Below, in pieces: positions 36,765 through 39,700 of a DNA stretch of 64,000 nucleotides. Made by a program: the position numbers and the translations under genes. Under the pieces are notes generated by a model. That model did no database searches. It saw nothing but the letters and a program-made list of their open reading frames with translations, and was not told the origin of the DNA. This stretch comes from a virus (lineage: Duplodnaviria; Heunggongvirae; Uroviricota; Caudoviricetes), in IMG/VR virus record IMGVR_UViG_2654587772_000002. One strand, 5' to 3'. Numbering within the stretch: position 1 is the first letter of the stretch; every line of letters begins with the position of its first letter.

Positions 36765-39700
36765 AAGAACTGTGCTATGGATCTGTTTGCAGTGGAATTG
36801 AAGCCGCGAGTATTGCCTGGGAACCGTTGGGTATGCGTCCGGCGTGGTTTGCTGAAATAGAGCCTTTTCCATCTGCCGTTCTTGCGCACCGCTGGCCCCA
36901 TGTCGCCAACCTTGGCGACATGACAAAACTCGCCCAAAAAGTCCAGGCTGGAGAAATTGAAGCCCCTGATGTGCTGGTGGGAGGGACACCATGTTTTACC
37001 GCGGGGCATATGGTTCTTTGTAAAAATGGTTATAAACCAATAGAAGATGTTTGCCCTGGCGATTACGTAGTCAGTCATCTCGGGCGGTTACAACAAGTAA
37101 AAAGAGTTGGTTCAAAAATAGCTAATACGGGGTTACTTAATGCCGTTGGGCAGCCTTTAGGTATAAGAACAACCAATGACCATCCCTTCCTGGCGGTTCG
37201 GTGGAAAGCCCAAAACACCCGGAAAAATGGCACATATTTTAAGAGAGAGTTGTTGTCTGAACCGGAATGGCGAGCAGCATGTGATATGCCGGGATATCAA
37301 TGGTGTGCTCTAACTAATTTCAATATTGCATCTCCAGATATTTGTTCTCGGTTCTTGTCTGAAGAACAGGCTATGTATCTTGCGGGCGCTTATGTTGGCG
37401 ATGGATATATTAGGAGATGGAAAGGTAAATCTAAGAAGGCGGTTGTTTTTGGCATAAATTGCCAGAAGTTGAGAAAGTTTCATTGCCGCATACCAGAAAA
37501 CATATTTTCCGTGGCAAGCGAAATCCGAGGGAGCATCAAAGTAACCTTGAATGATACGTGTTATGCCAATTGGCTTAATGAACATTTTGGCGAGTTAAGC
37601 CATGCTAAGCGTATCCCTGCATGGGTGATGTCGCATCCATTGCGTCATGTGTTTTTACAAGGCTATCTTGATACTGATGGGACACCAAGTGGTAAAGCGG
37701 GATTTAGAATTAATAGTGTTAGTCCTGCGCTTGCTTGGGGCGTTGCGGAGTTGTCACAGACTTGTGGTTATGTTTCTTCGGTCAGCTTTATTGAAGTTGA
37801 GCCCAAAAAAGTGATTGAGGATCGCGTGGTAAATCAACGGAATTATTATCAGGTAACAATCTGCCCGCAGAAATTGTCACGTAAATCAAGATTGGCTCAT
37901 GGAATGCTTTTACGAACAGTCAAAGAGTTTAAATCGGTAGGCCTAGATACTGTATACAACATAGAAGTCGAAGGTGATCATTCCTATATCCTCAATGGTG
38001 CGGTGGTCCATAACTGTCAGGCATTCAGTATCGCTGGATTACGTGGTGGGCTTGATGATGAGCGTGGCGCGCTAACTTTAAAGTATGTGGAGCTTGCAAA
38101 TGCAATTGACGACAAACGGGCTGAGTCATTTCTCAAACCATCCGTTATCGTCTGGGAAAATGTCCCAGGAGTCTTGTCATCGGCAGATAACGCCTTCGGA
38201 TGTTTCCTTGCCGGATTGGCTGGAGAAGATGCGCCATTTGAACCAGGTGATCGACCTGAATCAGGAAAAAGTAACGCGTTCTGGCGGTGGGATGTCAAAA
38301 CCGGTTGCCATGCTCCAAAGTGGCCGCAGTGTGGTTGTATTTATGGACCGCAGCGAAAAGTGGCCTGGAGAATCCTTGATGCCCAATACTTCGGAGTGGC
38401 ACAACGACGCCGACGCGTGTTTGTTGTCGCAAGTGCTCGAACAGACCTCGATCCCGCAACGGTACTTTTTGAGTTCGAAGGCGTGCGCCGGAATATTGCG
38501 CCGAGCCGAAAAAAGAAGGAAATCACTTCCGCCATTATTGCAAATGGCGCTGCAATCAGTGGCGAAAGCCTAAATCCATGCCTACACGCTGACATGCCAC
38601 CCGGTATGAAATCGACGAAAGCCGTAAACGCTTTCAGGATGGCAGCATTTGGGGAATATATTGACGATGAAACCGCATCGACAGTAAAGGCAAGAGATTT
38701 TAAAGATGCCACTGACCTTGCCGTTTTTAGCAGCACAGGAGCAGGTTTTTGGTCAGAAGGGCATGGTACATTGCGGGCACGTGAGCAAGAAAGCCATGAG
38801 CATCTTGTTACATTGGCTTTTCCTGAGCGTATGAGCGGTACACAACATGCTGCAACTAAGAATACTTCACCATCTCTAATGGCTAAAAATCCAACAGCTG
38901 TTTGCTATGAAGTAAGAAACGCAGAAGTAGCTGTCCGCCGTCTTACCCCTGTCGAATGTGAAAGGCTGCAAGGTTTTCCTGATGGGCATACGTTGATCCC
39001 GACGGAAAAGCGTAAAAAAGTTAATTCAGATGAACTGGCATATCTTCGCAATCACTATCCAGATTTAAGCGAAGAAGAGGCCGCGATGCTTGCAGCTGAC
39101 GGGCCGCGTTACAAAGCGATCGGCAATAGTATGGCAATACCAGTAATGCGCTGGATTGGCGATCGGATTACTAAGGCCGTATGTCGGCAGAAAGAAGGAA
39201 GTGAAACAAAAGAGCGAAAAGTTAAACCAGCGGCAGAATTCGAACGGTCCATATTCAAATGGGCTGGTGGAAAATTTGGTGTTCTGGAACAAATCTTTCG
39301 CTATTTGCCAGAAGGGAAGCGCCTGATTGAACCTTTCGTTGGTGGCGGAGCTGTCTTCATGAATGCCGGATACCAGGAAAATCTGCTAAATGATGTGAAT
39401 GCTGACCTGATTAACTTTTACAAGACTCTGCAACGCGAGGCGCATTCACTTATCACTCTGGCACATCGTTTCTTCCAGGACTACAACACACAGGAAGGAT
39501 ACCTGGCAGTACGGAATGCGTTTAACAAACAAGTCTATGATGATTTACATCGCGCAGCGGCGTTTTTGTTCCTGAACCGACATTGTTTTAACGGATTGAC
39601 GCGTTACAACCAGGCCGGTGAGTTCAATGTCGGTTATGGGAAGTATAAAACTCCGTATTTCCCATTGCAGGAGATGGAAGCCTTCCTTGGTGCGGAAGGG

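Follow-up and report, generated by a model that had tools for sequence, protein, structure and literature searches.

Inteins residing in the DNA methyltransferases (MTases) of phages are elements of a known kind. DNMT-1/2 inteins were described in mycobacteriophages of clusters E/F (Kelley et al. 2016, PMC5050341), methylase inteins were the subject of a study from the Gogarten laboratory (PMC9957025), and a 2025 survey of actinophages counted N-6/N-4 and C-5 methylases among the intein hosts (bioRxiv 10.1101/2025.01.02.630785). Here, we describe a 1-kb insert, almost certainly an intein with an embedded LAGLIDADG endonuclease, which interrupts the MTase gene dmt of a P1-like phage-plasmid (Punavirus). 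The gene lies in a stretch of 64,000 nucleotides (nt) of DNA from a member of the Caudoviricetes (IMG/VR virus record IMGVR_UViG_2654587772_000002), the whole of which is referred to below as the window. Like the dmt insert, the actinophage elements are LAGLIDADG inteins of phage DNA MTases that are patchily distributed among close relatives, a distribution that was read as the result of homing and horizontal transfer. Unlike it, their best-studied cases lie in N4/N6 enzymes at another site, and their hosts are Actinobacteria.

None of these three papers mentions P1-like phages or enterobacteria. Furthermore, neither dmt nor any insertion is brought up in the comparative studies of P1-like plasmids that we consulted, and we found no description of a P1-family dmt intein in the full-text literature that we searched, which did not include Gilcrease & Casjens 2018 (PMC5800970), so that an earlier description may exist. 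Apparent matches in the literature (the BASEL collection, a plasmid-mobility review, Pectobacterium phage CB7 and a B. thuringiensis phage) were discarded as they concerned other things, and no usable statement that E. coli is devoid of inteins was retrieved. Hence, phage MTase inteins are already known as a kind, and the P1-family member is undescribed in the searched literature and unannotated in the records that we inspected.

The structurally closest systems are PI-SceI of the VMA1 protein of S. cerevisiae, the archaeal VMA inteins, PI-PfuI and PI-TkoII (Foldseek E values from 9e-17 to 1e-9), which share with the dmt insert the residue Cys1, the TxxH motif, the terminal His-Asn, the +1 Cys and a Hint domain interrupted by a double-motif LAGLIDADG domain. 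However, their sequence identity to it is only 11–17%, and they are 454–537 amino acids (aa) long compared with 341 aa for the dmt insert, which, judging from its size, apparently lacks the extra DNA-recognition region of PI-SceI. Their hosts are ATPases, polymerases or ribonucleotide reductases, whereas the host here is a phage DNA MTase.

The insert in dmt and its host enzyme

The dmt precursor is encoded by an open reading frame (ORF) of 1095 codons plus a stop codon, which begins with a GTG overlapping the stop codon of hrdC/rdgC and is laid out from 5’ to 3’ as an N-extein, an intein and a C-extein (Table 1). An earlier note on this DNA had placed an intein at nt 36992–38014, codons 78–418 of the 1095-aa ORF, and translation confirmed these coordinates exactly. 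The in-frame insert of 1023 nt (341 aa, + strand) lies between an N-extein ending in VLVGGTP and a C-extein beginning with CQAFSIAGL. Because the first codons of the intein and of the C-extein are both TGT, the limits of the insertion in the DNA are ambiguous by 3 nt (36992–38014 or 36995–38017), and the coordinates used here follow the protein convention that assigns Cys1 to the intein. Deletion of the 341 aa in silico produced the 754-aa extein that the note had also predicted, with motif IV of the C5-cytosine MTase rebuilt as GGTP/CQAFSIAG (a slash marks the junction throughout).

This 754-aa product was identical to the Dmt protein of P1 (NC_005856 gp069, 754 aa) at 743 of 754 positions (99%) without a gap. 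The P1 gene belongs to the same operon and is associated with the same C1 operators. It differs by the absence of the 1023-nt insert and by its Pro codon at -1, which is CCT instead of CCA. A megablast search with positions 36700–38300, the hrdC(rdgC)-dmt region of P1-like phage-plasmids, divided the public sequences accordingly. RCS47, vB_EcoM-Ro157c2YLVW, OP279344 and 126 PLSDB plasmids aligned from end to end at 98–99.9% identity, whereas P1 (NC_005856, AF234172/3), P7, SJ46, JL22 and others matched the flanks only, and these flanks abutted exactly (578 bp vs 1601 bp here). Thus, dmt homologues are collinear once the segment is removed and not across it.

By its domains, the dmt product is bifunctional, with a C5-cytosine MTase at the N-terminus and a Dam-type N6-adenine MTase at the C-terminus. 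The insertion point falls in motif IV between the Pro and the Cys of the catalytic PCQ, so that the +1 splicing nucleophile would be the catalytic cysteine of the C5-MTase itself. Removal of the insert raised the PF00145 score from 104.3 bits for the precursor to 124.7 bits for the spliced sequence and made the N-terminal match contiguous; motifs IV (PCQ), VI (ENV), VIII (QRR) and X (GNS) are all present in the spliced sequence. The precursor scored 97.4 bits with TIGR00675 (dcm), under the cut-off of 100.65, which is probably why the Prokaryotic Genome Annotation Pipeline (PGAP) names it only as a ‘Dam family’ MTase. None of the public records of intein-plus dmt that we inspected carries an intein annotation. 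The note had further supposed that the enzyme would be inactive until spliced. This seems reasonable for the C5 domain, whose catalytic loop is split, but not for the Dam domain at the C-terminus, which the precursor contains in full and which may be independent of splicing. P1 requires that pac be methylated by Dam, and in hosts that are Dam-negative it cannot do without dmt (PMC12707154); a Dam activity independent of splicing would presumably relax selection on splicing.

Reference P1 itself presents a peculiarity next to the junction. Its codon at locus positions ~3281–3283 (L003; 36980–36982 in the window) is TGG, which gives Trp at Dmt residue 74 and the sequence VLVWGTPCQ. All other sampled alleles (~105), intein-plus or intein-less, encode Gly at this residue (GGTPCQ). 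Trp74 is private to reference P1 and adjoins both the catalytic motif and the intein target site.

The hallmarks on which the proposal of an intein had been based, namely an N-terminal Cys, a C-terminal His-Asn, a +1 Cys and two LAGLIDADG blocks, are all present, the two blocks at intein residues 128–140 and 220–232. Furthermore, searches with hidden Markov models returned matches above their cut-offs for Pfam LAGLIDADG_3 (36.6 bits in two stretches, cut-off 22.5), marginally for Pfam Hint_2 (28.5 bits, cut-off 28.4), and for NCBIfam TIGR01443, which models the C-terminal splicing region of inteins (28.9–30.7 bits, cut-off 15.6). Weaker Pfam matches were obtained with Intein_splicing and Hom_end. 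We then aligned the intein with 13 homologues at 24–53% identity. Invariant or near-invariant positions among these 14 sequences were Cys1, Phe2 and Gly5 in block A, Thr61 and His64 in block B, Gly132, Asp137, Gly138, Lys206, Asp229 and Gly230 in the endonuclease domain, Val321, Asn323 and Val326 in the region of block F, Val339 and Asn341 in block G, and, beyond the intein, the +1 Cys. Each LAGLIDADG motif ends in a conserved acidic residue (Asp137 and Asp229), and Lys206, which is located between the two motifs, probably corresponds to Lys301 of PI-SceI.

Since sequence searches against solved structures gave weak matches only (Spl DnaX mini-intein, E=0.0015; PI-TkoII, E=0.054), a comparison of folds was needed. 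An AlphaFold2 model computed from the intein alignment reached a mean predicted local distance difference test (pLDDT) score of 93.2 and a predicted template modelling (pTM) score of 0.89. Its beta-strands at residues 7–107 and 299–340 form the Hint part, and the order of secondary structures in residues 124–292 fits the pseudo-dimeric alpha-beta-beta-alpha-beta-beta-alpha core of LAGLIDADG enzymes. The best Foldseek match in the PDB was PI-SceI (E=9e-17), followed by the Tli and Pho VMA inteins, PI-PfuI and PI-TkoII. The central domain matched I-DmoI, I-SceI, I-OnuI and I-AniI with a probability of 1.00, and the Hint part matched mini-inteins, including those of Prp8; the branched-intermediate structure 4oz6 was matched as well. 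The only PHROGs match, to the family ‘anaerobic ribonucleoside reductase large subunit’, covered the intein part of that family and was set aside as an uninformative mislabel stemming from an intein-containing family. Exact collinearity with the intein-less alleles, together with the independent domain and fold matches, excludes a chance origin, and the insert is almost certainly an intein of the canonical class-1 type in which a double-motif LAGLIDADG endonuclease is embedded.

Every protein that a search with the intein retrieved (E values down to 1e-21) was a C5-MTase interrupted at the same place, with boundaries of the form GG[TSV]P/CF...[HN]N/CQ, or SPE/CF...N/CT in an actinobacterial group. 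The P/CQ site is occupied in Mannheimia phage vB_MhS_587AP2 (48% identity) and M. haemolytica prophages, in Propionibacterium phage B22 gp50, in Lactobacillus phage Nyseid, in the Escherichia jumbo phage A4 (Asteriusvirus) and its relatives, and in the metagenomic proteins P0007–P0014. These relatives have the same GG[TSF]P/C...HN/CQ boundaries and the same architecture, and their inteins are 27–53% identical to the one studied here. Their host genes are not fused to Dam and belong to other phage families, and the records inspected annotate no intein. The methylase inteins of cluster F mycobacteriophages, which are the published DNMT inteins, are weaker relatives (27% identity) and occupy a different site in an N4/N6 enzyme; gp60 of Pacc40 is such a weak homologue, with the junction ...MHV/CLARGS...VVKN/CPLQF. 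In the closest relatives, the exteins are 64–70% identical, with a Dmt-like N-extein, and the inteins 48–53%, which suggests that the intein may have long resided in a lineage of Dmt-like MTases.

The Mannheimia phage locus (L115, KP137435.1, locus positions 1264–3100) differs from the others by the state of its host gene. The homologous intein, with 48% identity (protein P0011, found on 578 contigs), is followed by a decayed C-extein. The frame after HN/CQ reads ...SDKGGTVKASGGGFEWRE and then stops, QAFS, ENV and QRR have been lost from the MTase, and the rest of the MTase is annotated as a separate overlapping ORF that precedes an HNH endonuclease gene. An intact-looking intein thus lies within an apparently pseudogenised MTase that is widespread in M. 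haemolytica prophages.

Distribution and diversity of the intein

Among 5426 complete genomes of E. coli, 152 contained intein DNA. The 153 places, 148 on plasmids and 5 on chromosomes, were always inside dmt, and the copies were always full length, each of the 153 records covering at least 80% of the intein. The dmt flanks were present in 494 complete E. coli genomes, and the contiguous intein-less form was seen in 337, which means that ~31% of the dmt alleles (152/494) are intein-plus. PLSDB contained 133 intein-plus plasmids, from Escherichia (118, in E. coli, E. albertii and E. fergusonii), Salmonella (14) and Shigella (1). In IMG/VR, the intein occurred at 27 of the 106 loci with the start sequence of the C-extein. 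It is present in phage RCS47 and exactly missing from reference P1 and P7.

Five of the 153 places in E. coli are chromosomal and correspond either to integrated, decaying P1-like elements or to assembly joins. One such copy, in the ‘chromosome’ of E. coli ST2747 (L110, NZ_CP007394.1, 2160446–2173468), is 100% identical to that of the window. The genes around it are P1-like and include one for a plasmid replication initiator of the RepB family as well as several tail genes with truncations or frameshifts.

The intein also occurs in a laboratory phage, as OP279344 is the genome of a P1vir stock (bioRxiv 10.1101/2022.09.09.507302). This record from pAgo studies, ‘Escherichia phage P1 isolate del res del mod’ (OP279344.1, 58623–66223; L001, dmt at locus positions 3062–6103), carries the same intein with 99.4% amino acid identity. 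Its dmt is annotated as 3042 nt long compared with 3288 nt here, and its C-extein is shorter. As OP279344 is intein-plus and reference P1 is intein-less, laboratory stocks of ‘P1’ are heterogeneous at dmt.

Mobility was analysed with 62 P1-like loci that had sufficient flanks, 18 of which were intein-plus. All 18 full-length inteins were open, free of stops and frameshifts, and represented 11 distinct DNA sequences. There were 27 variable intein codons, 13 with synonymous changes only and 14 with amino acid changes, over 226 synonymous and 797 non-synonymous sites (crude pN/pS ~0.31), and no amino acid change fell within the splicing or LAGLIDADG blocks. In the same genomes, nucleotide diversity was 0.0066 in the intein, 0.023 in the 500 nt upstream and 0.069 in the 1500 nt downstream.

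At least three flank haplotypes of the N-extein bear the intein. The type A junction (...CTCGTCGGGGGAACACCA/), found in RCS47, OP279344 and most others, is nearly the same as a common intein-less allele, the differences being essentially confined to nt -1 (A for T) and nt -22. The type B junction (...CTGGTGGGAGGGACACCA/), which the window shares with L059, L088 and others, departs from intein-less alleles at six synonymous positions within its final 16 nt. The window and L088 have the proximal type B tract in common and differ further upstream; distally, the window resembles an intein-less haplotype. Nucleotide -1 was perfectly associated with the presence of the intein (r2 = 1), and the association remained between 0.3 and 0.8 out to about -120 and +160, to fall to ~0 beyond -250 and +170. 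Furthermore, L104 and L064 were the same throughout the intein and the 500 nt before it, but showed 7 differences over the 160 nt that follow it and ~110 over 1500 nt, so that identical inteins are joined to very different C-exteins.

Candidate target junctions of intein-less dmt read GGGGGAACACCT/TGTCAGG, GGAACACCT/TGTCAGG, GGTACGCCT/TGTCAGG and GGGGGTACGCCT/TGTCAGG, in addition to TGGGGTACGCCT in reference P1. Altogether, the population patterns fit those expected of homing with short co-conversion tracts of variable length. Homing is likely to have occurred in the past. For an active endonuclease, or for homing that is current or recent, the odds are even at best.

The C-extein between 38500 and 39100, ~500–1100 nt downstream of the intein, was hypervariable among the 62 loci, with many indels and ~7% diversity. 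Because of these indels, the 1500-nt downstream flanks were aligned with MAFFT, giving 2125 alignment columns. This segment is presumably the target-recognition region of the C5-MTase, which suggests that different P1-like plasmids methylate different cytosine motifs.

Splicing, homing and competing explanations

Following the steps established for the intein family, the 1095-aa precursor would be translated from the C1-repressed uhr-hrdC-dmt operon during lytic growth. Cys1 would undergo an N-S acyl shift, and the +1 Cys, the MTase’s own catalytic nucleophile, would attack the resulting thioester. Cyclisation of Asn341, aided by His340, would release the 341-aa intein, and an S-N shift would join the exteins into a 754-aa Dmt with an intact motif IV. 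The freed intein, or possibly the precursor, would then cut intein-less dmt around ...GGGGGAACACCT/TGTCAGGCATTCAG..., and repair of the double-strand break from an intein-bearing copy would transfer the intein together with a short segment of flanking extein. The presence of two P1-like genomes in one cell would provide the occasion for homing.

The best explanation of the data as a whole is that the P1-like dmt carries a class-1 intein with a homing endonuclease at PCQ, to which we assign a probability of about 0.88. Several observations weigh against it. At the level of domains, Hint_2 exceeds its cut-off by only 0.1 bit, the score of Pfam Intein_splicing is under its cut-off, and the NCBIfam scan gave no match to TIGR01445 (N-terminal splicing region). 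At the level of populations, ~70% of the dmt alleles are intein-free, all those sampled have T at -1, and there is no sign of ongoing conversion; this intein-free majority could reflect an inactive endonuclease or resistant common alleles. Furthermore, the same population pattern would arise if the intein had been inserted once, long ago, and dmt, as a highly mosaic gene, had since recombined in the ordinary way.

Within the favored explanation, the intein is most probably able to splice, considering that its catalytic residues are fully conserved, that the extein is intact, and that it persists in ~30% of the alleles, including in a viable laboratory phage. A more far-reaching proposal is that it acts as a currently active gene drive in the P1 family. 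The intein would splice efficiently in E. coli, and its endonuclease, expressed from the lytic operon, would cut and convert intein-less dmt in co-resident or superinfected P1-like genomes and carry along ~20–160 bp of flank. We regard this proposal as tentative and give it somewhat less than an even chance.

The strongest rival of the favored explanation, a serious one although less likely than not, is that the intein splices but that its endonuclease is inactive or without susceptible targets. The distribution of the intein would then go back to one or a few invasions of long ago, to vertical descent, and to the usual homologous recombination between P1-like plasmids, which are mosaic. Indeed, dmt is mosaic regardless of the intein, with a downstream diversity of 0.068 among intein-less alleles too, and any old polymorphism would show a similar decay of linkage. 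The frequency of the intein, ~25–31% in three independent collections, could be that of a stable polymorphism, and the intein-linked A at -1 occurs in no intein-less allele. However, endonuclease domains without function usually decay or are deleted over the homing cycle, leaving mini-inteins. Here, both LAGLIDADG aspartates and the invariant Lys are kept, stops and frameshifts are absent from all copies (0/18), and each E. coli record (153/153) retains at least 80% of the intein. Moreover, the diversity of the intein is 3–10 times below that of its flanks, and the purely synonymous type B tract that is common to otherwise different N-exteins (the window and L059 vs L088) looks like co-conversion from a donor.

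That the insert no longer splices, leaving the C5 domain permanently disrupted and the Dam domain working from the 1095-aa fusion, is very unlikely. Such a loss might be tolerated, since the record of P1 (NC_005856) credits Dmt with a C5 activity only by way of a ‘perhaps’ and the Dam domain is intact, and the Mannheimia phage and prophage homologue with a deleted or frameshifted C-extein demonstrates that decayed exteins can bear such inteins. Yet Cys1, T61/H64, D329/H330, H340, N341 and the +1 Cys are all present and invariant among the copies, the C5 motifs PCQ, ENV, QRRR and GNS are intact in an extein 99% identical to intein-less Dmt, and substitutions in the intein are biased toward synonymous ones.

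Finally, the marginal Hint_2 match and the Intein_splicing score below cut-off speak for a segment that is not an intein but a Hint domain of the bacterial intein-like (BIL) type, a LAGLIDADG gene that was once free-standing and became fused accidentally, or an inserted domain proper to the enzyme. This reading is extremely unlikely, given that the entire 341 aa are modelled with the fold of the intein-endonuclease PI-SceI, that TIGR01443 scores above its cut-off, that intein-less alleles are exactly collinear, and that homologues in eleven other MTases all have C...[HKAN]N/C boundaries. BIL domains are Hint domains without an endonuclease and without the strict combination of His-Asn and a +1 nucleophile at a conserved site of the host protein, found in variable regions of non-conserved proteins and often devoid of a +1 nucleophile or of canonical splicing. 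A BIL domain was rejected here on account of the endonuclease domain, the location in the most conserved catalytic motif, and the canonical His-Asn and Cys+1.

Operon context, feature coordinates and significance

The C1 operator Odmt lies upstream of the uhr-hrdC-dmt operon (Table 1) and a second one, Oban, at 40039; tRNA-Asn and tRNA-Thr genes follow dmt, as is typical of P1. By homology with P1, the intein-bearing dmt would thus belong to a C1-repressed operon expressed in lytic development.

Table 1. Coordinates of dmt, its intein and associated sites in the window.
Feature	Position (nt)	Strand	Basis
C1 repressor operator Odmt (P1 Op68), ATTGCTCTAATAAATAT	35494..35510	+	Same sequence as the operator annotated in P1; precedes the uhr-hrdC-dmt operon
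dmt precursor ORF	36761..40048	+	Translation; dmt or Dam-family methyltransferase in public records
N-extein, 77 aa, from the motif I region of the C5-MTase to ...GGTP of motif IV	36761..36991	+	PF00145 aligns contiguously with residues 8–135 of the spliced protein
Type B junction, proximal 5’ flank tract CTGGTGGGAGGGACACCA; candidate co-conversion tract	36975..36991	+	6 synonymous differences from intein-less alleles, including nt -1 (A, not T)
Intein, 341 aa; double-motif LAGLIDADG endonuclease domain set within a Hint splicing domain	36992..38014	+	Domain models, alignment, predicted fold
Splicing block A (CFTAGH); Cys1 as N-terminal nucleophile	36992..37009	+	C1, F2 and G5 invariant in the 14-sequence alignment
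Splicing block B (TTNDHPF); TxxH formed by T61 and H64	37169..37189	+	T61 and H64 invariant
LAGLIDADG motif 1, intein residues 128–140; putative catalytic Asp137	37373..37411	+	G132 and G138 invariant; D137 in at least 90% of sequences; model helix 124–137
AKRIPAW segment; Lys206 between both LAGLIDADG motifs	37604..37624	+	K206 and W211 invariant
LAGLIDADG motif 2, intein residues 220–232; putative catalytic Asp229	37649..37687	+	D229 in at least 90% of sequences; G230 invariant; model helix 218–229
Splicing blocks F and G (...NGAVVHN), ending in His340-Asn341	37952..38014	+	TIGR01443 above cut-off; N341, V339 and N323 invariant; aligns to the C-terminus of the Spl DnaX mini-intein
+1 Cys codon; C-extein splicing nucleophile and catalytic Cys of C5-MTase motif IV (PCQ)	38015..38017	+	Column is Cys in nearly all homologues
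C-extein, 677 aa; remaining C5-MTase (QAFS, ENV, QRRR and GNS motifs), then Dam D12 N6-adenine MTase domain	38015..40045	+	PF00145, PF02086, TIGR00571
Dam D12 domain, precursor residues 834–1066	approximately 39260–39958	+	PF02086; TIGR00571 dam, 248.8 bits

Elsewhere in the window, Rfam models located the C4 antisense RNA of P1 immI with its a1/b1 targets at 16993–17199 (+), which confirms an immunity region of the P1 type, and a sok antitoxin RNA of the hok/sok type at 22112–22285 (+). ARAGORN predicted a tRNA-Ser gene (anticodon tga) at 41353–41439 (+), ~475 nt downstream of tRNA-Thr. The Rfam tRNA model gave no match to this segment at its gathering threshold, and the annotated features of P1 that overlap the stretch beside dmt include tRNA-Asn and tRNA-Thr only and no tRNA-Ser. 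The segment could encode an additional tRNA or a degenerate one, or the prediction could be false.

The dmt intein does not represent a new kind of biology. Its interest lies in its host, a phage family of E. coli typified by P1, in its high frequency and in its tractability. P1 is among the most used phages in bacterial genetics, and P1-like phage-plasmids are watched as carriers of resistance genes. Recognition of the intein sets right hundreds of records in which a 1095-aa ‘methyltransferase’ is annotated, and it explains a length polymorphism of 1 kb that would otherwise serve as a character in typing or phylogeny. It also offers a tractable natural system for the study of splicing and homing, with E. 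coli as a host and both intein-plus and intein-less phages of one species, including laboratory stocks, as well as a putative new LAGLIDADG enzyme that is compact and whose target, some 20–30 bp long, can be predicted. If the intein is currently an active gene drive, it would be the first described native intein and homing system of the E. coli mobilome, and this drive would already reside, unnoticed, in ~3% of the complete genomes of E. coli and in at least one P1vir stock in laboratory use (OP279344). Furthermore, dmt illustrates clearly that an intein can have the catalytic residue of its host enzyme as its +1 nucleophile, and because this residue is the catalytic cysteine of the MTase, splicing could also gate the timing of 5-methylcytosine (m5C) methylation during infection.

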